A stretch of DNA of 64,000 nt, from positions 54,539 through 118,538 of the IMG/VR virus record IMGVR_UViG_3300030060_004050. One strand, written 5' to 3'. The position numbers were made by a program, and so were the translations under genes. Shown here piece by piece: positions 21,519-41,015 of this stretch. A model generated the notes under the pieces. It searched no databases. It was not told where the DNA came from and saw only the letters and a program-made list of their open reading frames with translations. The first letter of the stretch is position 1; every line of letters begins with the position of its first letter. Origin of the DNA: a virus.

Positions 21519-22417
21519 ATTGTTTAATTACAGGTGGAGCAGGACATATAGGATCTCACCTCGCCCTTAGATTGCACGAAGAGGGACATGAGGTTGACAT
21601 CATCGATAACCTATCGGTAGGAAACCGTGATGCAATAAAAGATCTAGAAAATCTGGGATGGAAGGGCGAGTTTACTAAAGCAAGTATCAATGATCCTCAA
21701 ATGGTGGCATATGCACTTCAATTAAAGAAGTATGATGTGTGTTTTCATTTAGCAGGTTACACTGTCCCACAGGACTCTGTTGAAAAACCAGTGGTTTATT
21801 ATGAAAACAACTTGTCCCCGTTTACTCAGTTTCTATCCTCTCTCATATTCCATGGTGTTAATAGGGTAGTCTTGTGTAGAACTGAAAATACCTACACTCC
21901 TTGTGAAACATCTGCCAGAACAGTAGAGCAAATTATTTACGATGTATGTAAGGTAACTCCTAACATAAACTACTCATCTTTTAGATTACCAGAGGTAGTT
22001 GGAAATAATATTGATGGTAAGATTGGAGACTATGGGTTTGGTAAAAAAAATAAACTCATTTGCAATTGTATGTCCGCATCTGCAAACATTATTCCGCAGG
22101 TGGTGGTGGACAATGGAGCCGATTCACACAAATTAATTCATGTGGATGATGTGGTTGAAGAACTAATTAAGTCCTTAAGCGACACGAAGAATCAAATTCA
22201 TCATGTAAACCCAGCCATAATTACAACTGCCAGAAGTATAGTTGAATCGTGTATAAAGGTAACTGCCGGTAAATACCCTGTCATCGAGAAAAAGTATGAT
22301 CAGGATCAAGTTGATACCGTCGATATTAAAGTAAATAAAAGTGCCTCTATAACTTGCCTAGATACAATTACAAAATCAATTTGGAATTGGATCAAAAGAG
22401 TTAAAAAGATTCCTTGA
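21515..22417 (+). CDS. UDP-glucose 4-epimerase-like SDR protein lacking the catalytic YxxxK
   Basis: ITGGAGHIGS, DNLSVG, SVEKPVVYYENN are GalE-like; the catalytic segment reads PCETSA. Confidence 0.7.
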   Translation: MNCLITGGAGHIGSHLALRLHEEGHEVDIIDNLSVGNRDAIKDLENLGWKGEFTKASINDPQMVAYALQLKKYDVCFHLAGYTVPQDSVEKPVVYYENNLSPFTQFLSSLIFHGVNRVVLCRTENTYTPCETSARTVEQIIYDVCKVTPNINYSSFRLPEVVGNNIDGKIGDYGFGKKNKLICNCMSASANIIPQVVVDNGADSHKLIHVDDVVEELIKSLSDTKNQIHHVNPAIITTARSIVESCIKVTAGKYPVIEKKYDQDQVDTVDIKVNKSASITCLDTITKSIWNWIKRVKKIP

Positions 22418-23987: not shown

Positions 23988-24689
23988 ATGGAAACTACAA
24001 TGACATCAACTAAAATTTCAAACGAAACTCTAGAAGTATTAAAGAACTTCTCATCAATCAACTCAAATATTCTCGTTAAGGAGGGAAATGTACTGACTAC
24101 CATTTCCCCCGTCAAGAATGTAATGGCAGAAGCAACTGTCCCCGAAACTTTCGATCAGGAGTTTGGTATCTGGGATCTTAACAAGTTCCTTGGAACCATT
24201 TCCCTTTTCGATAGTCCTGAGTTTATGTTTGAGGATAAGTTTGTAACGATCAGTTCGAGCAAAAACAATTCGTCTGTTCGATACTACTACTCAGAACCTT
24301 CTCTTCTTACCACGGTAAACAAGAAGATTAATATGCCCGAACCAGTTGTCACTTGTTCGATTACCCAAAAGGTATTCAATGACATCCTTAAGGCATCTTC
24401 CGTTCTTCAGGTTAGCGACATTGCAATTCAGTCTGACTCCGACGAACTGCAAATTGTCGCACTGGATAAGAAGGATAAGAGCAGCAACAGTTACTCCATC
24501 AAGATTGCAGACATGCCTATTGGTGGACCTACTTTTGCTTTCTACTTCAAGGCAGAAAACCTGAAGATGCTTCCGGGTGATTATGATGTAAACATCACGG
24601 AGAAGGTTGTGAGTGAGTTCACCAACACAAACCGAAGTCTTAAGTATTGGGTAGCACTGGAATCTGACTCATACTACCAGGCACCATGA
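23988..24689 (+). CDS. g45: Sliding clamp
   Basis: LKNFSSINSNI, FGIWDLNKFL, FKAENLKMLPGDYDV, YWVALE. Confidence 0.96.
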   Translation: METTMTSTKISNETLEVLKNFSSINSNILVKEGNVLTTISPVKNVMAEATVPETFDQEFGIWDLNKFLGTISLFDSPEFMFEDKFVTISSSKNNSSVRYYYSEPSLLTTVNKKINMPEPVVTCSITQKVFNDILKASSVLQVSDIAIQSDSDELQIVALDKKDKSSNSYSIKIADMPIGGPTFAFYFKAENLKMLPGDYDVNITEKVVSEFTNTNRSLKYWVALESDSYYQAP

Positions 24690-25591
24690 ACACTTTAGTA
24701 ACAGGTGGAAGTGGACTTGTTGGATCTTGTGTCGGAGGAACGCATAAACCGCGTTCTTCCGATCTTGATCTATTAAATTATGATCAGGTATACCAATACA
24801 TTAAAGATCACAACATAAAAAGAATAGTTCACTGTGCTGCTAGGGTGGGTGGTGTAAAAGAAAATACAGAAAAACCAGCAGACTTCTTCTATGACAATAT
24901 GCAGATGACACTGAACGTAATTCATGCTGCTAAAGAATGTAATGTTGAAAAAGTTATTTGTATGCTATCTACATGCATCTTTCCATATCAGGTAGAATAT
25001 CCATTGACAACCGAACAGATTCATCTTGGAGAACCCCACCCGTCAAATTATGGGTATGGTTTTGCTAAGAGAATGACTGAAGTAAACGCTAGAGCATATA
25101 GAGAACAGTATGGAATGAATATAGTTACTGTTGTTCCGTGTAATGTATATGGCATAGGTGACAATTTTAACTTGGATAGTTCTCATGTTATTCCGGGATT
25201 GATTCATAAGTATTATCTTGCATCAAGAGATGATACTGATGTTACAATCTGGGGAGGTGGACAAGCAAAAAGAGAATTTATATACAATAAGGATCTGGGT
25301 AAAATTGTAGACTGGGTTGTTGACAACTATGATGATGAAGAGCCTCTTATAATTTCACCCGATGAAGAAATTAGCATCGCTAGTCTTTCTAATGAAATTG
25401 CATCAATTTTTAGTTTCTTCAATACAATCTTTTTTGATAATTCGATGCCTGACGGAATGCTAAGAAAACCATCAGATAATAGCAAACTCAAAGAGTTGCT
25501 CCCTGATTTTTCTTATACATCTTTAGGAGAAGGACTTCAAGAAACCATAGATTGGTTTGTGGAAAATTACGATAAAGGTATTAGATTATGA
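24686..25591 (+). CDS. GDP-4-keto-6-deoxysugar epimerase/reductase (Fcl/ColC family)
   Basis: LVTGGSGLVG, HCAARVGG, LSTCIFP, YGFAKR, SHVIPGLI. Confidence 0.9.
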   Translation: MNTLVTGGSGLVGSCVGGTHKPRSSDLDLLNYDQVYQYIKDHNIKRIVHCAARVGGVKENTEKPADFFYDNMQMTLNVIHAAKECNVEKVICMLSTCIFPYQVEYPLTTEQIHLGEPHPSNYGYGFAKRMTEVNARAYREQYGMNIVTVVPCNVYGIGDNFNLDSSHVIPGLIHKYYLASRDDTDVTIWGGGQAKREFIYNKDLGKIVDWVVDNYDDEEPLIISPDEEISIASLSNEIASIFSFFNTIFFDNSMPDGMLRKPSDNSKLKELLPDFSYTSLGEGLQETIDWFVENYDKGIRL

Positions 25592-26757
25592 AAACCATGA
25601 AAAAATGGAAGTTGATGGATGATGCCATCACACAAGAACAAAGAGAAAAACTTGCAGCCTTCTGCTTAAAGAGCGACAGGTTTTCTCAGGGACAGGAAGT
25701 ACGAAAATTTGAAGAACAGTGGAGCAAGTGGCAGGGTTGTAAATACTCTGTATTTTGCAATTCCGGTTCCTCTGCAAACTTCTTGATGGTGCAAGCAGCA
25801 AAAGAACTTTGGGCCCCGCACCCCGGAGCAACTTGGGTTTCTCAGGCATGTACATGGGCAACTACAGTTTCTCCTATAATGATGTCGGGTGACAATTTGC
25901 AACTTTGTGATGTGAGTCTTCCCTCTCTTGGACCTGATAAAAAGAATCTTGAAAAGATTTTCCATGATGGTTGTTTTAATGGAGACTGTCCACGTTATCT
26001 TTTCCTCGCACACCTTCTAGGATTCTCTGCGATTGATAATGAAATTCTTCAAATGTGTGACTACTATGGAGTAACTCTATTGGAAGATTGTTGCGAATCT
26101 CATGGTGCAACATACAGAGGGAGAAAGATTGGAAACTTTGGTGATATGTCCTCCTTCTCATTCTATTACGGTCATCATATGACAACGATTGAAGGCGGAA
26201 TGGTTTGCACTAACCATAAAGATCTGTATGAAAAACTATTGCTCCTCCGCTCACATGGACTCATGAGAGAACTACCAGAGGACTCAAAAGAAGAATATAA
26301 AGATCATGTGGTGGATGATAACTTTACTTTTATGTTGCCTGGTTTCAACATGAGATCCACCGACTTCAATGCTATTCTAGGTCAAATGCAACTAGAAGAT
26401 CTCGACAAACACAATGACATTCGAACAGAAAACTTCGATGTGTTTGCCAATAAATTAGACAGTGAAAAGTATTACACCGATTTTAGAACAGAAGGAAACT
26501 GTAGTTTTTGTTTCCCTGTTATTTGTAAAGATGGTGGATCGAAAAAACTAAGAGAAGTTCTAGAGAAAGAGGGTGTCGAAACTCGACCTGTTATTGCGGG
26601 TAACCTACACAGACATCCGTTCATGAAGAAAGTAAATCAGTTTAGATATGATGATAACGCAGAGATCGTTCATAAGAATGGTTTCTACATTGGTAACAAC
26701 CACTCCGTGCAGACAGGAGATGTAGAGTGGTTGGTAGATTTATTGAATAGGAGTTGA
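25588..26757 (+). CDS. colD: DegT-fold PLP enzyme of ColD type (GDP-4-keto-6-deoxymannose 3-dehydratase)
   Basis: NSGSSAN, EDCCESHGA, and SFSFYYGHHMTTIEGG with His in place of the Schiff-base Lys; 389 aa. Confidence 0.75.
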   Translation: MKTMKKWKLMDDAITQEQREKLAAFCLKSDRFSQGQEVRKFEEQWSKWQGCKYSVFCNSGSSANFLMVQAAKELWAPHPGATWVSQACTWATTVSPIMMSGDNLQLCDVSLPSLGPDKKNLEKIFHDGCFNGDCPRYLFLAHLLGFSAIDNEILQMCDYYGVTLLEDCCESHGATYRGRKIGNFGDMSSFSFYYGHHMTTIEGGMVCTNHKDLYEKLLLLRSHGLMRELPEDSKEEYKDHVVDDNFTFMLPGFNMRSTDFNAILGQMQLEDLDKHNDIRTENFDVFANKLDSEKYYTDFRTEGNCSFCFPVICKDGGSKKLREVLEKEGVETRPVIAGNLHRHPFMKKVNQFRYDDNAEIVHKNGFYIGNNHSVQTGDVEWLVDLLNRS

Positions 26758-26758
26758 T

Positions 26759-27757
26759 GTGAAAAAAGCATTAATAACCGGAATTAGTGGACAAGATGGA
26801 TCTTATCTTGCAGAATTTTTGCTGGGTAAAGATTATGAAGTTCATGGAATTATTAGAAGAAACTCAGTTGCAGAAAATCAAACGGCAAGACTCAAGAACG
26901 TATTTGACGATGATCACCTTCATCTCCATTATGGAGACGTTGAAGATTTATCTTGTCTTATTGAATTGTTGCAGAAGGTACAACCAGAGGAAGTGTATAA
27001 CCTAGCAGCACAGTCTCATGTTAGAATTAGTTTTGATGTTCCTTTGTATACTGCTGCTGCAACTGGACTCGGTAGTCTTAAGGTAATCGAGGCATGTAGA
27101 TTGGTTTGTCCAGATGCTAGAATTTATCAAGCGTCTTCGTCTGAGATGTTCGGAAATAGTATCGATGATGACGGGTTTCAAAGAGAGTCAACACCTCTAT
27201 CTCCGGTGAGTCCATATGGATGTTCAAAAGTTTTTGCCTATAACATTGCGAGAAACTATAGAAACTCATATGACATGTTTATCTCAAACGGTATTCTGTT
27301 TAATCATGAATCGCCTAGAAGAGGATCTAACTTTGTAACAAGCAAAGTAGTGAAGGGTGCATGTGCAATTAAGATGGGTGAACAAGAAAATCTAAAACTA
27401 GGAAACTTAGATGCAACTAGAGATTGGGGACATGCAAAAGATTATGTCGAGGCAATGTGGATGATACTTCAACACAGTGTACCCGACGATTTTGTTTGTG
27501 CGACCGGAGTATCGCATAGTGTTCGTGATCTATGCGAATATACCTTTAAAGTTCTTGACATGGACTATAAACAGTATATAATTACAGATGAAAAGTACCT
27601 TCGTCCAGAAGAACTAGAGGATCTAAAAGGAGACTCGTCTAAACTTAGATCACAAGTAGGATGGAAACCGAGGTACTCTTTTGAATTGATGATCAATGAA
27701 ATGATTGAGCATGAACTTTGGAATGAATATCAAGTGAGTTTGGAGGACATTATATGA
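26759..27757 (+). CDS. gmd: GDP-mannose 4,6-dehydratase
   Basis: ALITGISGQDGSYLAE, YNLAAQSHV, QASSSEMFG, SPYGCSK, LFNHESPRRG, RDWGHAKDY; GTG start. Confidence 0.96.
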   Translation: MKKALITGISGQDGSYLAEFLLGKDYEVHGIIRRNSVAENQTARLKNVFDDDHLHLHYGDVEDLSCLIELLQKVQPEEVYNLAAQSHVRISFDVPLYTAAATGLGSLKVIEACRLVCPDARIYQASSSEMFGNSIDDDGFQRESTPLSPVSPYGCSKVFAYNIARNYRNSYDMFISNGILFNHESPRRGSNFVTSKVVKGACAIKMGEQENLKLGNLDATRDWGHAKDYVEAMWMILQHSVPDDFVCATGVSHSVRDLCEYTFKVLDMDYKQYIITDEKYLRPEELEDLKGDSSKLRSQVGWKPRYSFELMINEMIEHELWNEYQVSLEDII

Positions 27758-28707
27758 CGGTTGCTGAAGCAACAAAAGATTTTTTGTGGGTGGAGAAGTA
27801 TCGCCCTAACACTATTGCAGACTGTATTCTCCCGAAAGATATCAAAGATACCTTTCAGGCTATTGTTGATTCTGGTGAACTTCAAAACCTTCTCCTATCA
27901 GGTGGAGCAGGATGTGGTAAAACCACGATTGCAAAAGCACTTTGTAATGAGATGGGTTCAGACTGGATTATCATTAACTGTTCGGAAGATGGTAACATTG
28001 ATACCCTTCGAACGAAGATTAGAAACTTTGCAAGCAGCGTTTCAATCGGTGGTGGTAACAAGGTAGTAATCCTAGATGAGTTTGATTATGCTAATGCACA
28101 GAGTATGCAACCTGCTCTTCGTGGGTTCATCGAGGAATTTGCTAATAATTGCCGTTTTATTCTGACTTGTAACTTCAAGAACAGGATTATTGAACCTCTT
28201 CATTCTAGATGTACCAATATAGAGTTTCGTATTCCCAATGCAGAGAAACCTGCAATGGCAGCAGGATTCTTGGATAGGATTGAATACATTCTCAACCAAG
28301 AGGGAATTGAATATGAGCAGCGAGTTCTAGCAGAACTTGTGATGCGACACTTTCCCGACTTCCGCAGAGTAATCAACGAACTTCAAAGATACTCTGTTGC
28401 AGGGACAATTGACATTGGTATACTTTCTAGAGTTGGTAGTGTAAAAATCAACGAACTCATGGATGCGATGAAGATGAAGAAGTTTACTGACGTTCGTAAG
28501 TGGGTTGTTGAAAACCTTGATAACGATCAGACTAGAATCTTCAGAAAGATCTATGATGGTTTGTATGAAACTATGGAACCACAAAGTATCCCGAGAGCAA
28601 TTCTTGTTCTTGCCGATTATCAGTATAAGTCTGCATTCGTAGCAGATCAAGAGATTAACCTTACAGCATGTTTAACAGAACTAATGATGGAGTGTGAATT
28701 CAAATGA
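27754..28707 (+). CDS. g44: Clamp loader large subunit
   Basis: LWVEKYRP, GGAGCGKTT, ILDEFD, IIEPLHSRC, FPDFRR. Confidence 0.97.
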   Translation: MTVAEATKDFLWVEKYRPNTIADCILPKDIKDTFQAIVDSGELQNLLLSGGAGCGKTTIAKALCNEMGSDWIIINCSEDGNIDTLRTKIRNFASSVSIGGGNKVVILDEFDYANAQSMQPALRGFIEEFANNCRFILTCNFKNRIIEPLHSRCTNIEFRIPNAEKPAMAAGFLDRIEYILNQEGIEYEQRVLAELVMRHFPDFRRVINELQRYSVAGTIDIGILSRVGSVKINELMDAMKMKKFTDVRKWVVENLDNDQTRIFRKIYDGLYETMEPQSIPRAILVLADYQYKSAFVADQEINLTACLTELMMECEFK

Positions 28708-29003
28708 AGGGATTTAAACCACATGGAGATAAAGTAGTCATCGAACTCTGCGAAAAGAAGAAGGAGTATGAAAACATTATCTACGAAGACAAGAAGAATA
28801 TTCCTTGGATAAAGGGTAGAGTTTTATCAATTGGTGCAGGGACAAAGGATGAAAGCGGTAAAGTTTACCCTGCTGAATTTGAAGTGGATGACTATGTTGT
28901 TTTTGATAAAACCAAAGGCGTGGATACATACGAGGGTTTAGCAATCGTAGACATACGATCTGTCGTCATGGTTGTAGATAAAGATACAGAGATATCAGGA
29001 TGA
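28704..29003 (+). CDS. GroES/Cpn10-like co-chaperonin
   Basis: KPHGDKVVI, GRVLSIGAG, EVDDYVVFDK pattern of Cpn10; 99 aa. Confidence 0.7.
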   Translation: MKGFKPHGDKVVIELCEKKKEYENIIYEDKKNIPWIKGRVLSIGAGTKDESGKVYPAEFEVDDYVVFDKTKGVDTYEGLAIVDIRSVVMVVDKDTEISG

Positions 29004-29383
29004 AACTGGGAGACTATCTAAAGGCGATCAACAAGAGCAAAGAAGCACTCATGGACTCTGATGATGAGTTCATCGAGAGGGACTATGTGCCATTTGTCGT
29101 AAACAGATGTCTTTCGTTTTTTCCCGACACGATAATCCAAACCAACGAAGTAAATTTAAGATCCTCCATGGATAAGAAAATGCAGTTTGATTTTCTAAGA
29201 GGAACCATCCGAAAGGGTAATAGATATAGTCCTTGGATGAAGGAAAATTTACCCAAGGATATTGAAGTGGTGAAGGAGTACTTTAACTACAGCAATAAAA
29301 AAGCCAAAGAAGCACTTGAGATACTCACTCCAGAAGACCTTGAGAACATCAAAAATAAACTCTCAAAGGGCGGAAAAATATAA
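29000..29383 (+). CDS. g62: Clamp loader small subunit
   Basis: YVPFVVNRCLSFFPD, RYSPW, VKEYFNYSNKKAKEALEIL. Confidence 0.93.
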   Translation: MKLGDYLKAINKSKEALMDSDDEFIERDYVPFVVNRCLSFFPDTIIQTNEVNLRSSMDKKMQFDFLRGTIRKGNRYSPWMKENLPKDIEVVKEYFNYSNKKAKEALEILTPEDLENIKNKLSKGGKI

Positions 29384-29386
29384 ATA
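29379..29386 (+). promoter_or_regulatory. T4-type late promoter TATAAATA upstream of regA and the glycosyltransferase block
   Basis: Exact consensus at the g62 stop codon. Confidence 0.7.
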
Positions 29387-29420
29387 GTATAAACGTTATG
29401 CCATTTATATAAGAAGGAAC

Positions 29421-29834
29421 GTGAGCATGGAAAGACAAAAAATATCAGTAGATGATTTAATCGAGGTTGAACTGTACGAAGACGATGACTTTCTTAAAAT
29501 CAAAGAAACATTGACTCGAATAGGGATATCATCACGCAAAGAAAAAAAGTTATATCAATCTTGCCATATCTTACATAAGAGAGGTAAGTATTATATTGTC
29601 CACTTCAAAGAACTTTTTTCTCTGGATGGACTACCTTCAAATCTAACCGAAGAAGATATCGCAAGAAGGAACACCATTGTAAATCTATTAGATGAATGGG
29701 AACTCTGTGAAACTGTCGATCCGGAAAAGACAAAAGATCCAGTCCTAAACATAAAACAATTAAAGATTTTGTCCCACAAAGAAAAACAAGACTGGGAATT
29801 GTGTCCTAAATATCATATAGGAAAGAAGAAGTAA
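29421..29834 (+). CDS. regA: Translational repressor RegA
   Basis: DFLKIKETLTRIGI, LYQSCHILHKRGKYYIVHFKELF, WELCPKYHIG. Confidence 0.97.
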   Translation: MSMERQKISVDDLIEVELYEDDDFLKIKETLTRIGISSRKEKKLYQSCHILHKRGKYYIVHFKELFSLDGLPSNLTEEDIARRNTIVNLLDEWELCETVDPEKTKDPVLNIKQLKILSHKEKQDWELCPKYHIGKKK

Positions 29835-29850
29835 CAGGGGTTTTTATATA

Positions 29851-30537
29851 ATGAAAATTGATATTCGTGATGTGACTTGTCGCTGGATTAACCTAGACAG
29901 CGACACAGAAAATGCTAAAGAAATGGAAACCCAATTTAAAGAACTTGGGTTCGACAACCACAAAAGATTTTCTGCCAGAGTAGTAGATGCACCAGAGGGT
30001 ACTCCGTACAATCTCAGGCATTATGTCGGTTGTGCCCAGTCCCATATTGATGTGTTAACAGAAGAGTTTGATAGCGGACACCTCCTAGTATTGGAGGATG
30101 ATGTTGTTACAACCCCATGGTATAAAGATACAATAGAAGTTCCCGATGACACGGATGCTGTGTATCTTGGTGTTTCGCATGGAAATCAAAATTACCTCGC
30201 ACAAGATATATCAGAGCCGGGTGGAGAATGGTTAGCAAGAATACAGGGAGTATTTGCAACTCACGCCATTCTTTACTTGACAAACAAATACAAGCAAGCA
30301 ACAATCGACATCGCAAAAGAATACGCATACAATCGTAGCACTCCGTTTGACGTTGGTTGTGCAGAAATACAAAAATCGTTTAACGTTGTAACACCACACC
30401 TTCCTTTCTTTTATCAATCCGATGATCGAAGAAATGAAAACAACTGGGGTGATATAACGTCTCAACCATTAAGAATGATGGCTTATGGATCAGGACCACT
30501 AGGACCGGGATACGGTAGAGGACCACAAGGAGGTTAA
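29851..30537 (+). CDS. Glycosyltransferase, family 25-like
   Basis: WINLD, GCAQSH, LVLEDDV, ATHAILY. Confidence 0.7.
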   Translation: MKIDIRDVTCRWINLDSDTENAKEMETQFKELGFDNHKRFSARVVDAPEGTPYNLRHYVGCAQSHIDVLTEEFDSGHLLVLEDDVVTTPWYKDTIEVPDDTDAVYLGVSHGNQNYLAQDISEPGGEWLARIQGVFATHAILYLTNKYKQATIDIAKEYAYNRSTPFDVGCAEIQKSFNVVTPHLPFFYQSDDRRNENNWGDITSQPLRMMAYGSGPLGPGYGRGPQGG

Positions 30538-30538
30538 T

Positions 30539-31420
30539 ATGTTATGTTTTCCAAGATTAGGTGATTACGGTTACTTAGGTAACGCAATGTTCCAGTACTC
30601 TGCTCTACTCGGTATTGCAGATAAACATGGATACACCCCCGTTTATGATTATGAAAAAACAGGGACAATGGTTACCCTTCATGATCATTTTAAGATTACA
30701 AAGGCAGAGCAACTTGAACAATGGAAGCAAGTTCACGGAATGAAGAGAGTTTGGAAAGAACCTCACTTTAATTTTTCCGAATATGCATTTATGGACAAAC
30801 CTCCGCTATCAAGCGAAAGAAAAAAGAAACTTGGTATTGTTGACGAGTCTCCTCCTATCGTTCGAGAAGACACAGGACTAAATGGATACTTCCAGTCAGA
30901 GAAGTATTTCAATCACATTGAAGATACAATTCGATCCGAGTTTACCTTTAGTGATGAGGTGCGGGAACAATGTGAAGAAACAATCAAACCCATTAGAGAG
31001 AAGGACAAGATTGTAGTGTCCTTACATGTTCGATTAGGAGACTACAAGATGCTCGAACATGTCTATGTCCCTCTGGTAAAAACTGATTATTATCAAAAGG
31101 CAATCGCTTACCTATCAAATGAATTTGGTGAGGACAACCTACACTTTATTGTTTTCTCAGATGAACCTCAAATTTGCAAGCAGATTTTTCAAGGAGAGAA
31201 TATTGCTTACGCTGAAGGTGGATCTCAGACTCAAGATATGTGCCTGATGTCAATGTGTGATCACAACATCATCGCTAACAGTTCATTCAGTTGGTGGGGT
31301 GCATGGTTAAACAACAACAAGGACAAGAAGGTAATTGCTCCACACGGTTGGTTCCAACCAAATGAAAAAGATCCAAAGAACACTAAGGATCTATACTGTG
31401 AAGATTGGATTATTCTGTGA
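30539..31420 (+). CDS. Alpha-1,2-fucosyl/colitosyltransferase-like (GT11)
   Basis: GYLGNAMFQY, GYFQSEKYF, LHVRLGDY, FSDE, IIANSSFSWWGAWL. Confidence 0.9.
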   Translation: MLCFPRLGDYGYLGNAMFQYSALLGIADKHGYTPVYDYEKTGTMVTLHDHFKITKAEQLEQWKQVHGMKRVWKEPHFNFSEYAFMDKPPLSSERKKKLGIVDESPPIVREDTGLNGYFQSEKYFNHIEDTIRSEFTFSDEVREQCEETIKPIREKDKIVVSLHVRLGDYKMLEHVYVPLVKTDYYQKAIAYLSNEFGEDNLHFIVFSDEPQICKQIFQGENIAYAEGGSQTQDMCLMSMCDHNIIANSSFSWWGAWLNNNKDKKVIAPHGWFQPNEKDPKNTKDLYCEDWIIL

Positions 31421-33027
31421 AAAACATACTCTCATTTTATGGTGGACATGATGCATCTGTTACGTTTGTTGATAAGCAAGACAGGGTAAGAGTTATCGAA
31501 GTAGAGCGATATGTTAAGCAACGCTACGCTGCTTTCTCTTCATATCAAAACAAAAGATCTTTTGGTATTAGTGATGCGAAGAGATTAGATTTTCTAAATT
31601 ACTTGTATGACTCTGTTTTCGATCCGGAAAAGATCGACACTATTTTATACATGGGTTTGTCTGAAGATGATGCAAATCTAATTAAAAAGTTTTTTCCTAA
31701 TGCAGAGTTTAAACACATGAATCATCATCGTTCACATGCCTATTGTGGACATTACCAGTCGGGTTTTGAAAAGAGTATTATATTTTCAGTAGATGGTGGT
31801 GGTGTGGATCATGGACAGACGGTAACCACAAAAGTATTTTTAGGCAACGGAAACGACATCGAGGAACTTGAAGATTGTAAAATTGATTTCGGAACCGCCT
31901 ACATGTCAGTTGGTAAATATATTTCTGAAATCAAAAAAAAGCAAGACGACTCCCTTGCCTGGGCAGGAAAAATCATGGGACTTTGTGCCTATGGTGAAGT
32001 AAGAGAAGAATGGGTAGAACCCATGACAAGGTTCTATAAAACAATATCAGAAAAAACACATGAAAATATTGCATCTTCTGATCAAAGTTTCGGATCTGAA
32101 ATCATTCAAGAACTGTTTCCAGACACAGTTCTAACTCAAGACTGTCTAAAGGGTAAAGACAGTTATGATCTTGCTGCAACCAGTCAACATGTGTTTGAAG
32201 AACTTTTGTTCGAGTGGATGGAACCATATGTTAACGAATACAGAAGAGATGTTGTTTTAGTTGGTGGGTGTGCATTAAACGTTCTATACAATCAGAGATT
32301 CTCTGAGTATATGTTTGAAAAGAACATGAATAAACTGTACGTTCCACCAAACCCCAATGACTGTGGATTGTCTCTCGGATTTTTCCTAGAGGAGTGTCCT
32401 GAGTTAAGAGGTAAAGATTTCGTGTACGAAGGAATTGAACTCCTAGACAGAGACGATCTACAAAAGCATGTTTCTGAAAGAAACGCGAAAGAAGTCAATA
32501 CATCAGATATTGTTGACATTATCAAACGAGGAGAAATTGTTGGTTTGGTATATGGTGACTCTGAGATCGGACCTAGAGCATTAGGAAACAGAAGTATTAT
32601 CTGTGATCCCTCTTTCGAAAACATGAAGGACATCTTGAACAAGAAAGTAAAGTTTAGAGAGTGGTACAGACCTTTTGCCCCTGTTTCAATGCTACACCAC
32701 TCCAACACATACTTCCACAAGGTGTTCGAATCAAACTACATGAGTTTTGCACCAAAGGTTAAAGAAGAGTATCAGGAAAAACTTCGTGCCATTACTCATG
32801 TTGATGAAACCTCTAGACTACAAACTGTTTGTAAAGTCGGAGGACACCGAGGGTTCATGGACATTCTAGAGGAGTTGAATCGTAGAGAAGAGATCCCTGT
32901 CATTCTAAACACATCTTTTAATATCAGAGGGTATCCGATCCTCACAACGATAGAGGACGCACTTCATGTTCTGGATAATACTGAATTGGATCATGTTGTG
33001 GTAGAGGGTTACTTGTTTTCAAAATGA
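31405..33027 (+). CDS. Carbamoyltransferase (NodU/CmcH family)
   Basis: GHDAS, HHRSHA, GKIMGLCAYG, GGCALNV, GPRALGNRSI, REWYRPFAP, LNTSFN. Confidence 0.92.
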   Translation: MDYSVKNILSFYGGHDASVTFVDKQDRVRVIEVERYVKQRYAAFSSYQNKRSFGISDAKRLDFLNYLYDSVFDPEKIDTILYMGLSEDDANLIKKFFPNAEFKHMNHHRSHAYCGHYQSGFEKSIIFSVDGGGVDHGQTVTTKVFLGNGNDIEELEDCKIDFGTAYMSVGKYISEIKKKQDDSLAWAGKIMGLCAYGEVREEWVEPMTRFYKTISEKTHENIASSDQSFGSEIIQELFPDTVLTQDCLKGKDSYDLAATSQHVFEELLFEWMEPYVNEYRRDVVLVGGCALNVLYNQRFSEYMFEKNMNKLYVPPNPNDCGLSLGFFLEECPELRGKDFVYEGIELLDRDDLQKHVSERNAKEVNTSDIVDIIKRGEIVGLVYGDSEIGPRALGNRSIICDPSFENMKDILNKKVKFREWYRPFAPVSMLHHSNTYFHKVFESNYMSFAPKVKEEYQEKLRAITHVDETSRLQTVCKVGGHRGFMDILEELNRREEIPVILNTSFNIRGYPILTTIEDALHVLDNTELDHVVVEGYLFSK

Positions 33028-33851
33028 AAGTTGCTGAAGAAAAACTAAAATTATTCGTAGTGGGTGTCGATCCTTGCTGGACAGATCCAAAACAAATATA
33101 CCAAACAACAAACTCAAAGTGGACTCTTGATGAATCTGGTGTCAAGATTTTTGTTGATCATATGTTGGTAGAGGGCTTGTCCTGTCCAGACGAAAACAAA
33201 TATGCTTGGATATACGAACCAGCATCTGTCATACCAGACTTCGTTGATCACATAAAAAGTAGTGTGCATCTGTATGCTAAAACATATAATAAACTGTTTA
33301 CCCACAACAGACAGATTGCAAACCTACACGATAATTTTGTTCTTGTAGATCCCGGTTTTCCTAGTTGGATTGATTCACCAAAGATACACAAGAAGTCCAA
33401 AGTAGCGTCTATGATTACCTCCACGAAAAACTTTACACCGGGACACCGACATAGAATACATTGGGCGAATAAACTTCATGGACAGTTGGATCTATATGGA
33501 AGAGGACATAACGAAATTGAGTCAAAGGAAGACGGACTAAATGACTACATGTTCTCGGTTAGTCTGGAAAATGATGATACCGTATACACCGAAAAACTCT
33601 TAGATTGTTTTCTAACAGGCACTGTACCCATTTATTGGGGAAGCGATGATGTTAAAAATATTTTTAATAACGACGGAATCATATGGATTGACAGCAACTT
33701 TAGCGTAGATTCCTTGACAGAGGAACTATATAATTCTAAGAAAGAAGCAATACAAGAGAACTTTGAAATTGCAAAACAGGTAAACAAAGGCATCCCGGAA
33801 ATGGTAGACTTTTTCGTTGATGATTATATTTTAGGAGATATAAATGAGTGA
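33024..33851 (+). CDS. Fucosyltransferase-like glycosyltransferase (GT10-like)
   Basis: YMFSVSLEN...YTEKLLDCFLTGTVPIYWG resembles the GT10 alpha-1,3-FucT motif. Confidence 0.75.
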   Translation: MKVAEEKLKLFVVGVDPCWTDPKQIYQTTNSKWTLDESGVKIFVDHMLVEGLSCPDENKYAWIYEPASVIPDFVDHIKSSVHLYAKTYNKLFTHNRQIANLHDNFVLVDPGFPSWIDSPKIHKKSKVASMITSTKNFTPGHRHRIHWANKLHGQLDLYGRGHNEIESKEDGLNDYMFSVSLENDDTVYTEKLLDCFLTGTVPIYWGSDDVKNIFNNDGIIWIDSNFSVDSLTEELYNSKKEAIQENFEIAKQVNKGIPEMVDFFVDDYILGDINE

Positions 33852-35103
33852 TATTCCAGAACTAGGATTGTGCATGATTGTCAAAAACGAAGAGCATGTT
33901 ATTGAAAGATGCTTGGAGTCTATTCACAAATATATTGGATACTGGGTAATTTGTGACACAGGATCTACAGACAAAACAAAAGAAGTCATCGAGTCATTTT
34001 TCGAAAAGAAGGGAATCCCCGGTGAGGTAGTTGACATTCCTTGGGAGGGATTCGGTGCATCTCGAACGAAGGCACTTGAATGTGCTAAGGGAAAAATGAA
34101 GTATGCATGGATGATTGACGCAGACGATAGCGTCGAGGGAACTCCAAAACTACCCAACCTTAGCAATCCTGTTGATGGTTACTCCTTGAAAATTAAAAGA
34201 GGTGACTTTACATGGTGGAGAAATCATATTTTCAGACTAGAAAGTAACTGGAGATATGAGGGTGTTCTTCACGAATATGCAACATGTGATGCAGGCGCTG
34301 CTATGGTTTGTCTACCAATGAATGGAAATTACCATATCGAAGCAAGAACAGAGGGTGGTAGAAACGTCGATGTGACATCTCAAGAAAAGTATCTCAAAGA
34401 TGCTGAAGTGATTATGGATGCACTTACAAACGAAAAGTCTCCACACTATGAACCAGAAAACAGTCGGTATATCTTTTACCTTGCTCAAAGTTACTTCGAT
34501 GCTGGTGAATATGAACTCGCAAAGGAGTGGTATATTCAAAGAGCAAAGGCAGGAGGATGGGAAGAAGAAGTATTCTATGCGATGTATCGTGTAGGTATTT
34601 GTAACGTTCTTCTTGAACGTCCATGGCAAGAAATTCAAGATGCTTTTATGCAAGCATGGTCATATCGTCCTTGTAGAATTGAACCTCTGTGGCAGATTTC
34701 AAGACTCTATAGGCAGAACGGAAACCCAAGACTAGCATATCTGTTTGCAAACCAAGGACTGGGTGTTCCCTTCCCCGAACAAGATATTCTTTTCCTTGCT
34801 CACGACATTTGGGACTGGCAAATTCTAGACGAAGTTGCAGCAACCGCATACTATGTTCATGAATTTGAAAAGGGACTTGCTGCATCTAATATGCTGCTGA
34901 AGAATCCCAACTTCCCCAAAGAGCATCACGAAAGAACTCTAACAAATATCAAACTATATCAAGAAGCACTAGCAAACAAGCAAAAAGCAATACAAGAGAG
35001 AGAAGAGCGTCTGAAAGGACACTCTGACTATGGTGCTACTTCAAAGAAAAGACCTGAAAGAAAGAAGTCATTTAAGAAGAGAAAGAAACAAAAGGCAAGG
35101 TAA
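33844..35103 (+). CDS. GT2 glycosyltransferase with TPR repeats
   Basis: LCMIVKNEEHVIERCL, DTGSTD, IDAD (DxD), VLHE, then helical FYLAQSY/YRVG repeats. Confidence 0.85.
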   Translation: MSDIPELGLCMIVKNEEHVIERCLESIHKYIGYWVICDTGSTDKTKEVIESFFEKKGIPGEVVDIPWEGFGASRTKALECAKGKMKYAWMIDADDSVEGTPKLPNLSNPVDGYSLKIKRGDFTWWRNHIFRLESNWRYEGVLHEYATCDAGAAMVCLPMNGNYHIEARTEGGRNVDVTSQEKYLKDAEVIMDALTNEKSPHYEPENSRYIFYLAQSYFDAGEYELAKEWYIQRAKAGGWEEEVFYAMYRVGICNVLLERPWQEIQDAFMQAWSYRPCRIEPLWQISRLYRQNGNPRLAYLFANQGLGVPFPEQDILFLAHDIWDWQILDEVAATAYYVHEFEKGLAASNMLLKNPNFPKEHHERTLTNIKLYQEALANKQKAIQEREERLKGHSDYGATSKKRPERKKSFKKRKKQKAR

Positions 35104-35133
35104 TAATTTTCCTAAATACAATAGGAGAAACAT

Positions 35134-35598
35134 ATGGCAGCAGGCGAATATGACATTTTAGCAGAGCAAGGTACGACCTTCAAGTTATCTTTAACCTATA
35201 AAGACTCATCGGATGCGGTGATTGATCTGGAAGGACAAACGGGTAATATGCAAGTGCGTAGATCCGTTAGTGACAATCAGGCACTACTGTTCCTTTCTGG
35301 TCCTACGGGATCACATGTTGCACCGGGAATCCGAGGATCGTTGACAGGTGGTGGATCCACTGGAGAATTTACCACCGGAACTACTCAAGGACAAACCGGA
35401 ACTGGCGGTGTTATGCTTAACACCAGTTCTACTGGTGGAACAGGGACAACTGGTGGAATCTATATTCAAATTGATTCATCTACAATGGCAAACGTACCTG
35501 CTGGTAACCACATTTATGATTTAGAATTGGTTTCGGGTTCATCTGTAACTAGAATTCTACAGGGTAGATTCGAGGTAACTGCGGAAGTCACTAGATGA
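35134..35598 (+). CDS. Fibre-attachment/collar beta-sandwich protein with Thr/Gly-rich insert
   Basis: [11 protein letters not shown]...YDLEL...[10 protein letters not shown] pattern seen upstream of phage fibre genes; CTAAATA late-like box and AGGAG upstream. Confidence 0.55.
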
Positions 35599-37805
35599 GT
35601 TTCAAGATTGTAGTAAACGATAACAACGAACCAAACAAAGTCGTAGTAAACAACGACATTGTTACTGTTATCGCTCAATCCATAGAAGAAGATTCCACTA
35701 GTGTCTTCATTAATTCTCCGTCTGGGGTAGGACCTGGTGGAGATAAAGGTGATCCGGGAGCAACAGGAACCACAGGTTCTACAGGTCCAACAGGCGCTCA
35801 GGGAACTACTGGAACCACAGGGACTACAGGAACCACTGGTGCAACTGGTGCAACTGGTTCACAGGGTGTTCAGGGTATTCAAGGAACTACTGGAACCACT
35901 GGAACCACAGGGGCAACTGGCGCTACTGGTTCACAAGGTGTTCAGGGTATTCAAGGAACCACTGGGACTACCGGAACTACAGGCACGACAGGTGCAACAG
36001 GCGCGACAGGTGCAGATGGAAGTCAAGGTGTACAAGGAACAACTGGCACTACGGGTTCCACAGGAACCATAGGAAGGGTAGGAATTTGCGGTGGTTCTTC
36101 GTTCGACAATAATGAATCTCTTCTGTTCTTCTCTACAACCGATGGTTTAACATTAACATCATCTCAAAGTGGGACGGTAACTAAAGTCTTGTTTGATGGT
36201 GATGGACTTCTTGGTGCTGGTATGCAGGAAGCATTGTATACCTACGGTTTGACTAGTGGTGAATTGAATGCAGTTTCTCCGTCAAGCAATGGTGAATTGC
36301 TATTCAACGAAACCAACAACCAATTAGGAATTTTTAAATTTGACAACAGCGGCAGGGATTTCAGAACACAACTTTCTTCTGCTATAAACAATAATGCCAC
36401 TGGTAGAGTTGTCTTGAGATTCGATGATGGTATTCAAGCCAGATCATTTGAATTTGACGGAACTGATTCCGATGCTGTGTATAACGGAACGTTTTTCAGA
36501 ATTCCAGTTACTCAAATTAACGGCGGAACAGCAGGTAGCGGTAAAATAGTTGGGGTTGAAATTGAACTAGACAACCAGACTATGGGACCTGGTACAGCAT
36601 TCCGTCTTCCCGGTGGAGGAGAAACTTTCACCAGCGTTGTCACAATGCTTAATGGATTTACTGGTGGTATCACGCTCAATCACGGAGCAGGAATTACCAC
36701 TGCTGGTGCATCTGCCACTGGTATAACAATAGGGATTGATCCCTCCTCCACAATAAAGGTTGCAGGAATTTCATGCGATGGTGGTGCTACGTTTGGTAAT
36801 AATGTTAGATTCACCTCCGGCAATCACCTCGATATGGGAGAATCTACAATCCGAGGAGGAGGTAGTGCTGGTAATGCGTTGATGGGACTTGACCTCAATG
36901 AAACCCGACACTCCTTACAATTTGGTGAAATTGATACCGAACGCAACTCTACTATTCTTTTTATAAATGATCTTAATAAAGAGTATACTTTTTCCGCAGA
37001 TAGTGGTTGCACGGTAGACATCAATGGAAAACTTGAAGTGAGTGGACTGGTTGAGGCCACTGCTGGTATCGCTTCCGGTAAGGGAATAACATTTGCAAAT
37101 GATTCGGATATAATTTTTAATGGTGCATCATCTTCTTCGATCATTCAAAACGGCAACACCGTAGTGTTGTTTGATGATGCTAATGGACTTGTTAGATTTC
37201 CTGTTTTTGCAGTTGATATCGAGCAAAGACTCTCGCATGAGGGAGATAGTGACACATACTTAGACTTCACTACTAACAATTTAAAGATTCTTACAGGCGG
37301 AAATACCGCATTCAATGCTAACGCCACAGGCACAAATATTGGTGGAGTATCATTCGGAGTCACCGCCGGCGGAGTGACATTTGGTGGTCCAATAACATTC
37401 CCCGATGGAACAACACAATCTACCGCCGCAGATAAACAAGAAACTGTTGCACACTTTACTTTAACTTCATCCAGCGGACTTACCTCCGGTTCTAGAATTC
37501 ATAACTTACACTTTGTTCCTTTCAATGCAACAGCAAAACAGATAGGCATAAAAACTTGCGTCACTGGTGGAATCACCGCATCAATTCTTGCTGCTAACTT
37601 TGCATCTCCATTTGGTGCAACCCAAGCATCAGGAACAAGAACAATCGCAACACTAAACGCAGCAACCGCATCCTTTGGTGCAACAGGAACAACGATGTCC
37701 TCGGCAGCAATTACCGGAGGTTCCTTCTTGTACCTTAAGATCGACGGAATATCTTTCCCAGGCATTACTGGTGTTCAAGCATTCTTGACGTATGAGAGGT
37801 CATAA
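35595..37805 (+). CDS. Fibre protein with Thr-rich collagen-like repeat
   Basis: 38 consecutive G-X-Y triplets near the N-terminus, then G/T-rich beta-type domains. Confidence 0.75.
35739..36080 (+). repeat. Collagen-like coding repeat ([15 protein letters not shown] units)
   Basis: 38 G-X-Y triplets, 24 with Thr at Y; the block [18 protein letters not shown] recurs. Confidence 0.9.
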
Positions 37806-38977
37806 TGGCACTAACTGATGTATTCATTTCACCCGCTGGTGCTGGAGATAACTCTGGTAGTTCTGTTGCAAACGCTCTCCCTGCGATTAGCAGTGGTGAT
37901 TGGTCAACGAACATCGAAGGACTCGACCGAGCAAACAAGAGATTTGTGTTTCTTACTGGAACTTATGATGTTACAACCAAGTTGACATTCAGTGGTTCTG
38001 CTCCATCAGCAACCCAACCAAATCAATGGATCGGTGCAGACTCAAGTGGAAATCCTCTTCGACCAAAGTTTGATGAATCAGGTCTTCGACTGGTCACGAC
38101 AGACTATCCTAAATTTGTGTGTAGTACGAATGTCGCAATGGTTGATACAGAAGAAAACACATACTACAAGTGCTTATCGTTTGAAAACACAAGCACATCG
38201 TACTCCCTAACTTCTATTATTGAAACCACAACTACCGATGTTGACCAACAAATGTGGTTTGGTTGTGAATTTAAAACAGAGTATTCCCGTGCCAGTAGTA
38301 CGCTTGTTGTCATGACTGTTACCACCGCCGCTTTTTCAGATTGTGTATTTGAAGTAGGGGGTGGTGGAGGTTTTTCTCAGTTCGACTGCGTGGTAGAAGC
38401 GACTAGTAACAATACATTTGACAATTGTAGGATTATTGGTCCATTCTCCCCAGCGGACCCCCAACTCGTTGGTTCCGCTGGAGATCAAGTTGGATTGAGA
38501 ATAACTGCACTTACAACGAAGGTGAGAAACTGTGTGATTACGAGAGTGAATGGAACTGCGGTTGAACTTGAATTCTCAAACACTAAGACAGAAATTGATG
38601 TTGCTCATTGTACCATTTGTGATGCGAATGATGGAATCGTCACCAGCAGTGCCGCTTCCGCACTCCCCGGAAAAGGTTCGTTAGAGGGAAACATTGTATT
38701 TGGTTGCAGTTCTAATGGGATAGAGACGAACGCGGATGACTCCCGACAATCTGGCGCACAGATATTAGCAATGGGTTCTAATGGTAGTAATTTTGATTCC
38801 AACATGGACTCATACGAAGACATGATTGATGTAATTGCAATTACGACTGGTGACTTTTTTGATTACAACAACCAAGACTTCAGAATCAAGAGAGATTCTC
38901 CTTTGTATAAATTTTACGGAACTAGAAACTTTGGTGCGATTCAAAACGAGGACTTTGAAATAGGATCGGTAGGATAA
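37805..38977 (+). CDS. Right-handed beta-helix (pectin lyase-like) virion or carbohydrate-binding protein
   Basis: DVFISPAGAGDNSGSS start; periodic FSDCVF/FDNCRI/VRNCVI/VAHCTI/LEGNIV stacks. Confidence 0.65.
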   Translation: MALTDVFISPAGAGDNSGSSVANALPAISSGDWSTNIEGLDRANKRFVFLTGTYDVTTKLTFSGSAPSATQPNQWIGADSSGNPLRPKFDESGLRLVTTDYPKFVCSTNVAMVDTEENTYYKCLSFENTSTSYSLTSIIETTTTDVDQQMWFGCEFKTEYSRASSTLVVMTVTTAAFSDCVFEVGGGGGFSQFDCVVEATSNNTFDNCRIIGPFSPADPQLVGSAGDQVGLRITALTTKVRNCVITRVNGTAVELEFSNTKTEIDVAHCTICDANDGIVTSSAASALPGKGSLEGNIVFGCSSNGIETNADDSRQSGAQILAMGSNGSNFDSNMDSYEDMIDVIAITTGDFFDYNNQDFRIKRDSPLYKFYGTRNFGAIQNEDFEIGSVG

Positions 38978-38981
38978 AAAA

Positions 38982-39479
38982 ATGAAATATGAAGTAAACA
39001 TACCAGCGGGAGTTTCGGGAGACTACAAAATAGTTGAAGGACTCGACACCATCTTACAACAAAACATCAATGGTGAGTGGTTAACTATAATGGCAGATAG
39101 TGAACTGGAGGCGCACCAAGCAAAAGAATTCTTAGATGCTGCCACTGGAGATGTTTTACTTGCTGGACTTGGAATCGGAATGGTTCTTCAACCACTAATC
39201 GATAACGACAATGTTACCAGTATCACCGTAGTAGAAAAATTTCAAGAAGTTATTGATTTGGTGTGGACACATACACCATCGTCGAGTAAGATTACTCTAG
39301 TAAATGATGACATATACACATGGACTCCTGACAAAAATTACGATGTTGCTTGGTTTGATTCTTTCATAAATCCCATAGACGGATTAGACAACTTGGGAGA
39401 ATATAAGACTCAAATGCAAAATAAATATGAGAACATCGTTGGTTCTGGTTTCTTCTGGCCATCTCATCAAGGTTGGTAA
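38982..39479 (+). CDS. Class I SAM-dependent methyltransferase (spermidine synthase-like fold)
   Basis: DVLLAGLGIG, VVEK, DDIY, YDVAWFD. Confidence 0.75.
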   Translation: MKYEVNIPAGVSGDYKIVEGLDTILQQNINGEWLTIMADSELEAHQAKEFLDAATGDVLLAGLGIGMVLQPLIDNDNVTSITVVEKFQEVIDLVWTHTPSSSKITLVNDDIYTWTPDKNYDVAWFDSFINPIDGLDNLGEYKTQMQNKYENIVGSGFFWPSHQGW

Positions 39480-39500
39480 ACAAAAGGAAAACTTTACATT

Positions 39501-40160
39501 ATGAAAATTGATATTCGTGAAATGAGAACCAAGTGGATCAATCTCGACAAAGATACCACTAAAGCCGAACAAATGATAACTCTACTAGACAGTCATGGGT
39601 TTACTTCCCATGACCGTTTTAATGCAATGTGTGAAGACGAAGAGTTCGGAATTACAAGAGATAACTGTCAATGGTTCGGAACTCATATGTGTGGACTGTC
39701 TCATAGAAAACTTTTACAAGACACAATTATAGCAGATGGAAAACCTATCTTTGTTTTAGAAGACGACGTTGAAGTAGAGATGGATAAAATTAAATATGAG
39801 ATTGAAGTTCCCGATGATGCCGATGCTGTCTATCTAGGAACTTCTCAGGGCGATTGTAACTACTCTGCCATAAGTGTAAACGAAGATATAGCAAGGGTAG
39901 AGAGAATATTTGCCACACATGCAATCATTCATTTCAACCCAGAATACTCCAAAGCAGTAGCAAAAATAACTGAGGATGCAGTCAAAGGTGATGGACCTTT
40001 TGATGTTGGTATAGCGTATGGTGTACAAAAAGACTTCAACGTATACGCAGTAAAAACTCCATACTTTTATCAAGCAGATTCAAAGAATACCGTGAACAAA
40101 TACGAGTACATAACTCGAATCCCACTACTTTTAAATGATGAGGAATCTAACTTACTATGA
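39501..40160 (+). CDS. Glycosyltransferase family 25-like, paralog of 29851-30537
   Basis: MKIDIR..WINLD, CGLSH, VLEDDV, EVPDDADAVYLG, FATHAI. Confidence 0.7.
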   Translation: MKIDIREMRTKWINLDKDTTKAEQMITLLDSHGFTSHDRFNAMCEDEEFGITRDNCQWFGTHMCGLSHRKLLQDTIIADGKPIFVLEDDVEVEMDKIKYEIEVPDDADAVYLGTSQGDCNYSAISVNEDIARVERIFATHAIIHFNPEYSKAVAKITEDAVKGDGPFDVGIAYGVQKDFNVYAVKTPYFYQADSKNTVNKYEYITRIPLLLNDEESNLL

Positions 40161-40663: not shown

Positions 40664-40980
40664 TGAACAGAGAAGAACTATTGAACCACCATGCAGACAT
40701 TTGTAAAGAGGCACTAGAAATCATGAAGAAGAAAAATCATGATTATGCAGGGGAAGGCGGCGAGTCTCCTTTTGCCAACTTTACTCGCTCGGAGGACATG
40801 GGTATCTGTACAACCGAACAAGGATTTCTCGTTCGTCTCTGTGACAAACTTTCTCGTCTTTCTACGTTTGCCAGTGCCGGTGAACTAAAGGTAGACAACG
40901 AAGGTTATCACGATGCCATTCTTGATATCATTAACTACTGTATTCTGTTTGATGGTTATGTAAGTTCTAAGGATAATTAA
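40660..40980 (+). CDS. All-helical nucleotide-modification-associated (DUF1599-like) protein
   Basis: KKNHDYA, RLCDKLSRL, DAILDIINY pattern. Confidence 0.6.
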   Translation: MMNREELLNHHADICKEALEIMKKKNHDYAGEGGESPFANFTRSEDMGICTTEQGFLVRLCDKLSRLSTFASAGELKVDNEGYHDAILDIINYCILFDGYVSSKDN

Positions 40981-41009: not shown

Positions 41010-41015
41010 CTGTAT

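Follow-up and report, generated by a model that had tools for sequence, protein, structure and literature searches.

In the final 64 kb of a 118.5-kb virus record of IMG/VR (IMGVR_UViG_3300030060_004050, positions 54,539 to 118,538; this whole stretch of 64,000 nucleotides is called the window below), an uncultured marine T4-like myovirus carries an island of sugar-nucleotide, glycosyltransferase (GT) and tailoring genes together with the genes of a putative fibre module, and our analysis suggests that this phage probably sugar-coats its own fibre apparatus. The lead enzyme would be GT2-TPR, a putative protein-type glycosyltransferase with tetratricopeptide repeats (TPR), whose gene is followed by those for a small predicted fibre-anchor protein of 154 amino acids (p154) and for a Thr-rich collagen-like fibre. 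What we observe is a gene content, a set of folds, a gene pairing at the level of the enzyme family and a lack of transmembrane segments; our best reading is an SgtA-BclA3-like form of virus-encoded virion glycosylation, which would be new for T4-like phages. We know of no description of such a system for T4-like phages, and found none in the literature searched.

The island between regA and gp43 would represent an accessory fibre module, consisting of the p154 anchor, the Thr-rich, collagen-stalked fibre and a beta-helix partner, with GT2-TPR directly upstream. The TPR domain of this enzyme would bind the unassembled proteins of the module in the infected cytoplasm, and a first sugar would be moved onto Thr or Ser hydroxyls, the likely acceptors being the GTT/GAT collagen repeats in the stalk and/or a Gly/Ser/Thr-rich insert of p154; a lipid carrier or membrane step would be unnecessary. 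In a less certain second step, the neighbouring soluble enzymes would extend this first sugar: hexose would be attached by the GT25-like enzymes, L-colitose or L-fucose, made by the Gmd/ColD/Fcl/ColC-like pathway, by GT11 and GT10, and a carbamoyltransferase and a methyltransferase would cap the glycan. Taken as a whole, i.e. a protein glycosyltransferase dedicated to the fibre module plus extension by its neighbours, we see this proposal as evenly balanced between right and wrong; we place the protein-directed part with a fibre-module acceptor above that level, and the notion that the whole cluster builds one virion glycan below it. Priming of the fibre module by GT2-TPR is well supported by indirect argument and extension by the GT25-like, GT11 and GT10 enzymes with colitose or fucose appears plausible from the genes, while the roles of these enzymes and of the carbamoyl and methyl groups on one and the same glycan are only inferred.

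Glycosyltransferase and sugar-nucleotide genes of marine T4-like phages have for some twenty years been classed as 'LPS' (lipopolysaccharide) auxiliary genes that alter the host. If the proposal is true, these abundant genes need to be re-read as decorating the phages' own fibres, the ocean would hold a widespread class of glycoprotein virions, and the SgtA-BclA3 principle, i.e. direct cytoplasmic O-glycosylation of Thr-rich collagen repeats, would extend from spores to phages.

The GT2-TPR enzyme and the putative fibre module

GT2-TPR consists of an N-terminal GT-A domain, whose D92-A-D94-D95 (DxD) motif is invariant in 37 homologues, and a second half which in the AlphaFold2 (AF2) model (predicted local distance difference test, pLDDT, 90) is all-helical from residue 179, with TPR structures among the top Foldseek matches and a weak Pfam ANAPC3 match. 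The protein appears to be soluble and without a transmembrane segment, since its 19-residue hydropathy peaks at 0.94. Compared with the PDB by sequence, it is closest to Listeria GmaR (5.7e-12 over about 90 aligned residues), with SunS second (2.8e-5); by fold, SunS and ThuS come first over the full length (E 3e-15 across about 400 aligned columns), followed by wall-teichoic-acid transferases for the GT domain only and TPR proteins for the remainder. GmaR is a flagellin O-GlcNAc transferase, and SunS and ThuS are glycocin S-glycosyltransferases; all these closest characterised relatives glycosylate proteins or peptides directly in the cytoplasm. They share with GT2-TPR a GT2 catalytic domain joined to a helical or TPR substrate-binding domain, although the identity is low (about 14-17% in structure alignment) and the substrates differ. 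The sequence and fold matches uphold the preliminary description of this DNA, made from the letters alone, in treating GT2-TPR as a putative protein-type enzyme. Its last approximately 35 residues (window 34990-35103, + strand) are very rich in Lys and Arg, and the consensus of the 37 phage homologues likewise has a basic tail; it could serve in membrane binding, nucleic-acid binding or packaging.

The closest precedent, which the preliminary description had named correctly, is SgtA of C. difficile, a GT-A enzyme with C-terminal TPR, encoded beside bclA3, which adds beta-O-GlcNAc to Thr residues of the BclA3 collagen repeats in vitro (PMC7157674). Both systems combine a soluble GT2 domain with TPR and place its gene near a Thr-rich collagen-like gene, so that architecture and placement agree; they differ in that the partner is a phage fibre instead of a spore coat, in length (419 versus 358 amino acids), in the Lys/Arg-rich tail, in the p154 gene standing between enzyme and fibre, and in that sister phages keep GT2-TPR without Thr-rich collagen. 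Virions decorated by phage-encoded glycosyltransferases have been described for Che8/Corndog-type mycobacteriophages (Freeman et al. 2023, as cited in PMC12801897 and PMC12619734); what we propose here, from genes alone, is likewise a set of phage enzymes acting on the phage's own virion proteins. According to these citing passages, the sugars there go onto capsid and tail-tube subunits of actinobacterial siphoviruses, at their C-terminal tails, whereas here a fibre module is proposed.

For p154, the AF2 model predicts a small immunoglobulin (Ig)-like sandwich, whose top Foldseek matches are tail-tip chains of 139-140 residues from T5 and DT57C (E 3e-6). The T5 chain 7qg9_R (139 residues) aligns over 111 residues (VIA Z score 9.9, root-mean-square deviation 2.4); an equal Z score of 9.9 was obtained for a baseplate protein of the mycobacteriophage Douge and 6.9 for the TP901-1 baseplate, with phage neck and baseplate proteins among the lower matches, and these values should be read against an Ig-like background of 7-8, which 9.9 exceeds only modestly. 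The T5 Ig-fold protein of this size is p132. The small Ig-like fold of p154 is shared by p132 and the N-terminal domain of TP901-1 BppU (BppU-N), two structural proteins known to anchor side fibres: p132 is a collar protein holding the long tail fibres of T5, with a fold related to BppU-N (PMC10038345). Unlike them, p154 has a Gly/Ser/Thr-rich insert, and it has no sequence similarity to them. Because of the resemblance to the p132 fold, the 'adaptor' label given earlier to the 154-residue protein is reasonable. Over 38 homologues, Gly makes up 27% of the central insert on average and Ser/Thr another 27%, and G-x-[S/T] motifs number about five.

The fibre gene begins 492 nt downstream of GT2-TPR, past p154. 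Its collagen-like stalk (residues 46-168, nt 35730-36098) is followed by a Thr/Gly/Ser-rich C-terminal part; the stalk holds 41 uninterrupted G-X-Y triplets instead of the 38 counted earlier, with Thr at Y in 24, as had been stated, and at X in 15. A long uninterrupted G-X-Y run favouring Thr at Y is also typical of the BclA type. Residues 169-736, where a protein of the BclA type would be expected to have a trimerising globular domain, gave no match in a PDB sequence search, and the ESM Atlas model of this part is poor (pLDDT 0.47), with weak look-alikes (score below 0.85). The start of the next gene, for a right-handed beta-helix protein, overlaps the fibre stop; its product gave nothing significant in a PDB sequence search, and it accompanies the fibre in four relatives (loci L081, L005, L006 and L008).

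Collagen-like genes beside GT2-TPR across phyla and within the lineage

Scanning prokaryotes at one genome per species, we obtained 80 loci with GT2-TPR homologues (24-41% identity) in at least eight phyla, spanning Streptomyces, Solirubrobacterales, Bacillus, Brevibacillus, Clostridia, Streptococcus, Alpha-, Beta- and Gammaproteobacteria, Bacteroidota, Acidobacteriota, Chloroflexota and others. Taking as collagen-like any open reading frame (ORF) with at least eight consecutive G-X-Y triplets within 6 kb of the enzyme gene, such a neighbour was found at 41 of the 80 loci, with Thr at 40% or more of the Y positions in 35 of these 41. Distances are short: 27 of the 41 lie within 500 bp, and four lie beyond 3 kb, despite about 4.6 times more sequence surveyed there. 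Genome-wide, one to four loci contain five consecutive G-X-Thr triplets, and one of them adjoins GT2-TPR in each of the three genomes with listed places, of five searched. Clostridial homologues adjoin collagen genes too (L239), and among distant viral homologues GT2-TPR is paired with Thr-rich collagen at L012, L022, L032-34, L076 and L080. These observations constitute strong comparative evidence that the GT2-TPR family works on collagen-like proteins. Side by side, arrangements vary: in Streptomyces (L173-L204) the Thr-rich collagen gene usually stands immediately upstream of GT2-TPR in divergent orientation, and in Bacillales (L189, L231, L235) collagen genes lie in tandem with it, sometimes in arrays of several. 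The cross-phylum cassette seems to be little described, and the pairing merits attention in bacteria too.

Relatives of the window's phage were collected with GT2-TPR as anchor (L001-L011) and with the downstream DUF1599 gene as anchor (L082-L161). They share a backbone that runs from regA through sugar and GT genes of varying content to GT2-TPR and p154; next comes a variable fibre, in some cases the methyltransferase, and then dUTPase, DUF1599 and gp43. Among 25 non-redundant islands with enough upstream sequence, GT2-TPR is present in 22; p154 is adjacent to it or near it in 20 of the 22, twelve contain any collagen, and in only two is this collagen Thr-rich. The co-occurrence of enzyme and Thr-rich collagen expected from the preliminary description thus holds broadly, in bacteria and several viruses, and fails inside the T4-like lineage.

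In most relatives the ORF after p154 is large, variable and fibre-like, and it is this gene order that supports a putative place of p154 in the virion as holder of a fibre. Four situations can be distinguished behind p154: a fibre with Thr-rich collagen (in the window's clade and in that of L005/L006/L008); a Gln/Glu-rich collagen practically devoid of Thr at Y, accompanied by a separate fibre (L089, L099, L108, L121, L137, L141, L144, L148, L151); a non-collagen fibre (L092, L119, L155, L157); or nothing (L086, L095, L097, L098, L100-L103, L130). The conserved partner of GT2-TPR in this lineage, as far as gene neighbourhood indicates, is p154, not Thr-rich collagen, and in this phage both p154 and the collagen stalk may be acceptors. 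In one relative only, L122, p154 (L122:817-1215) directly follows regA with no GT2-TPR between them, and it lacks the Gly/Ser/Thr-rich insert, a single case which hints that p154 is the acceptor of GT2-TPR; L140 has too short a record to inform this comparison. The insert-less p154 of L122 is followed by an ORF of 1641 amino acids with 17% Thr (L122:1736-6658). As for the Gln/Glu-rich proteins, which lie between p154 and a large fibre gene (for example L089:2797-3861, L099:3525-4784, L121:5857-6894 and L137:4677-5867), they comprise about 350-420 residues with 50-60 triplets (GEQ, GVQ, GIQ) and almost no Thr; they represent a separate type of collagen at this place in the island.

The sugar and GT genes upstream of GT2-TPR vary freely among the relatives, like accessory genes. 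A bolder proposal would make GT2-TPR a near-core virion-maturation enzyme of this uncultured marine T4-like lineage, with the p154 insert as conserved acceptor, joined by collagen stalks where present, and the variable 'LPS-type' sets of marine myoviruses as makers of virion glycans that differ by strain, with colitose or fucose caps and with carbamoyl and methyl groups; we consider this doubtful. Collagen stalks, which lack hydroxyproline here, could gain stability from such glycans, and adsorption or shielding could be tuned by them.

Extension enzymes and alternative targets

Of the sugar genes named in the preliminary description as gmd, ColD and ColC, the first two stand. The ColD assignment is solid at the sequence level: the protein has His at the Schiff-base Lys position of aminotransferases, its G-H-H aligns with S-H-H, and the entry of the H188N mutant differs there. 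The third gene scores 228.8 bits against the NCBIfam model of GDP-fucose synthase (Fcl), whose cut-off is 500, and is therefore labelled Fcl/ColC-like only; its product could be GDP-fucose, GDP-colitose or both. Together, Gmd, ColD and the Fcl-like enzyme should yield GDP-L-colitose and perhaps also GDP-L-fucose. L-colitose and L-fucose are 6-deoxyhexoses of the kind transferred by the families GT11 and GT10. The two genes announced as GT25 are present and paralogous (41% identical), but the family label is weak: Pfam GT25 gives a signal in one of them only, and below cut-off. We therefore call them GT25-like; both fall into a phage GT25-like ESM Atlas cluster (score 0.97-0.98), and neither has a significant PDB sequence match. 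No transmembrane helix is predicted in any of the island enzymes and proteins, which fits stepwise cytoplasmic protein glycosylation and is compatible with host lipid-linked intermediates too.

Clusters with GT10, GT11, GT25, GT2 and NDP-sugar epimerase genes are likewise found in hypervariable islands of P-SSM2, S-SCSM1, S-SCSM2R and pelagimyophages, and here lies the first of several points which weigh against glycosylation of the fibre module by this phage: the published accounts, without experiments, read such clusters of marine myoviruses as modifying the host surface (cell wall) or DNA, and draw no link between an SgtA-like enzyme and a collagen fibre (PMC12801897, PMC7029224). The tail of GT2-TPR could indicate membrane or nucleic-acid binding. 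Within the lineage, the state of Thr-rich collagen changes five times on the GT2-TPR tree while the enzyme is retained, and a 75%-complete relative with GT2-TPR and p154 has no run of eight G-X-Y triplets in 135 kb; since the enzyme is kept with Thr-free collagen, with a non-collagen fibre or with no fibre, Thr-rich collagen is not its sole or ancestral acceptor. The adjacency of GT2-TPR and p154 may itself be mere conserved synteny rather than functional coupling. In raw counts, GT11 and GT10 genes are nearly confined to islands with Thr-containing collagen, with L007/L098 as the exception (GT11, GT10, ColC and ColD present, collagen absent); on the tree this amounts to three independent contrasts and is not significant, and the raw two-by-two count was not used for this reason. 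Finally, the record is 66% complete by estimate, and it is an inference that glycosylation takes place at all, as are its acceptor, its sugars and the sequence of its steps.

How much of the island is directed at the fibre is the question on which the explanations part. GT2-TPR might serve the fibre module alone, with the colitose/fucose genes, the GT25-like enzymes, GT11, GT10 and the carbamoyl- and methyltransferase remodelling a host surface glycan, be it LPS O-antigen or another glycoconjugate; by use of the lipid carrier and export machinery of the host, this could block superinfection or keep progeny off debris. GT25, GT11, GT10 and colitose are, after all, classic components of LPS and O-antigen, the set before GT2-TPR varies freely, and the association with Thr-rich collagen does not survive correction for the tree. 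The clusters of S-SCSM2R, S-SCSM1, P-SSM2 and pelagimyophages have been interpreted in this way (PMC12801897, PMC7029224), and because these published readings favour the host surface, we keep its remodelling as a serious rival for the extension genes, possible if clearly on the unlikely side. Against such a division of labour, the glyco-genes bracket the fibre genes on one common strand, with GT25-like b and the methyltransferase behind the fibre also in the close relatives L081 and L083, and the island enzymes lack transmembrane segments; in Pfam and NCBIfam scans, a search that here covers only the island part of the 66%-complete record, no island gene gave a match for a flippase, polymerase, ligase or initiating phosphoglycosyl transferase.

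That the target of GT2-TPR is a protein of the host, or else a phage protein without a structural role, in the manner of GmaR and flagellin, the enzyme's place beside the fibre being no more than the backbone order of the lineage, strikes us as improbable. Nearly all members of the lineage have the enzyme, irrespective of their type of fibre, and its closest solved sequence relative is a flagellin transferase; the family, however, pairs with collagen-like genes across phyla, and in nearly all relatives GT2-TPR stands immediately upstream of the virion-type Ig-like p154. Less probable by far is the placing of the sugars on phage DNA as glycan hypermodification of bases. A dUTPase/dCTP-deaminase-like gene and the DUF1599 gene lie just downstream, and diverse viral glycosyltransferases are said to glycosylate DNA in work cited by PMC12619734. 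We nevertheless rejected DNA glycosylation as unlikely, because no thymidylate-synthase or hydroxymethylase homologue was found in the record, because the order dUTPase-DUF1599-gp43 is kept in relatives without the GT island (L105, L132), and because GT2-TPR resembles protein glycosyltransferases and not those of DNA.

Gene order, promoter-like boxes and minor observations

Profile scans placed all the sugar genes, glycosyltransferases, tailoring enzymes, adaptor and fibre of the earlier gene list where it had located them (Table 1). The genes concerned lie between gp45 and gp43, all on the + strand, in the order gp45, Fcl/ColC-like, ColD, Gmd, gp44, Cpn10-like, gp62, regA, GT25-like a, GT11, carbamoyltransferase, GT10, GT2-TPR, p154, collagen fibre, beta-helix protein, methyltransferase, GT25-like b, dUTPase-like, DUF1599, lysozyme and gp43, so that the fibre genes are flanked by glyco-genes on both sides.

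Table 1 Features of the island and its surroundings, with positions in the window
Feature	Position	Strand	Evidence
NAD-dependent sugar epimerase/dehydratase, additional gene outside the finding	21515..22417	+	Pfam Epimerase 82 bits
Fcl/ColC-like GDP-4-keto-6-deoxyhexose epimerase/reductase	24686..25591	+	Pfam Epimerase 155 bits; N-terminal Rossmann motif
ColD-type GDP-4-keto-6-deoxymannose 3-dehydratase	25588..26757	+	Best PDB match E. coli ColD/WbdK 2gms, 1e-55
Gmd, GDP-mannose 4,6-dehydratase	26759..27757	+	Pfam 393 bits; TIGR01472 409.5 bits, slightly below cut-off of 415
TATAAATA box before regA	29379..29386	+	Exact match
CTAAATA box, 45 nt before GT25-like a	29806..29812	+	Sequence match
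GT25-like glycosyltransferase a	29851..30537	+	phrog_24091 1e-36; PHROG glucosyltransferase 9.5e-10
GT11 (alpha-1,2-fucosyl/colitosyl-transferase family)	30539..31420	+	Pfam PF01531 84 bits
NodU/CmcH-type O-carbamoyltransferase	31405..33027	+	Pfam Carbam_trans_C 188.6 bits, Carbam_trans_N 79.8 bits
GT10-like (alpha-1,3-fucosyltransferase family)	33024..33851	+	Pfam PF00852 C-terminal domain 33.7 bits, cut-off 23.9
GT2-TPR, putative soluble protein-type glycosyltransferase, 419 aa	33844..35103	+	Pfam GT2 54 bits
CTAAATA box, 22 nt before p154 start	35112..35118	+	Sequence match
p154, predicted Ig-like fibre-anchor (collar/adaptor-like) protein, 154 aa	35134..35598	+	AF2 pLDDT 91.6, small Ig-like sandwich
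Collagen-like fibre, 736 aa	35595..37805	+	Pfam Collagen; PHROG tail-fibre families via collagen part
Right-handed beta-helix protein	37805..38977	+	Pfam Beta_helix 25.7 bits, slightly under cut-off of 25.9
Small S-adenosylmethionine (SAM)-type methyltransferase	38982..39479	+	phrog_15480 2.3e-14; weak Pfam matches
GT25-like glycosyltransferase b, paralogue of a	39501..40160	+	Pfam GT25 21 bits, below cut-off

Of the two 'late-type boxes' reported earlier at 29379 and about 35112, the first is an exact TATAAATA, and the second reads CTAAATA, not TATAAATA. On both strands of the 118.5-kb record, 11 of 35 [A/C/T]TAAATA sites fall into the stretch 8-60 nt before a gene start, where about one would be expected, an approximately ten-fold excess by a rough calculation from the share of sequence in upstream windows rather than by a shuffle test. 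Such boxes precede the scaffold and tail-tube-like genes; others stand before regA, GT25-like a, p154 and the genes for a UvsW-like helicase and for ribonucleotide reductase. As they also stand before non-structural genes, they do not prove late expression of the island, with which they are compatible.

Compared with cultured cyanomyoviruses, the DNA polymerase of the phage reaches no more than about 53% identity. The available sequence, 66% complete, contains no psbA, and the sole match in a nucleotide search against cultured phages was 98 bp in regA. Protein searches of cultured phages with the fibre and with p154 gave zero matches, no phage in the isolate collection carries a close homologue of GT2-TPR or p154, and the search with GT2-TPR gave no cyanophage isolate. 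The sequencing runs listed as containing this stretch are marine and estuary metagenome DNA only, none being RNA.

Homologues of the additional epimerase gene at 21515 are located just upstream of GT2-TPR in many relatives (L092, L099, L108, L121, L144, L148, L151). Near the head genes, a Pro/Gly-rich ORF of 131 amino acids (window 5948-6340, + strand) contains a 10-triplet collagen-like run without Thr. A Cpn10/GroES-like gene (99 amino acids, window 28704-29003, + strand, Pfam 5.4e-10) is inserted between the clamp-loader genes gp44 and gp62, a position kept in the close relatives L001-L003 and L011. Directly before gp43 lie the DUF1599 'nucleotide modification associated' gene (window 40660-40980, + strand) and a gene for a destabilase-type lysozyme (40998-41444, + strand); with 70-91% identity across the lineage, DUF1599 is a good anchor for retrieving relatives.

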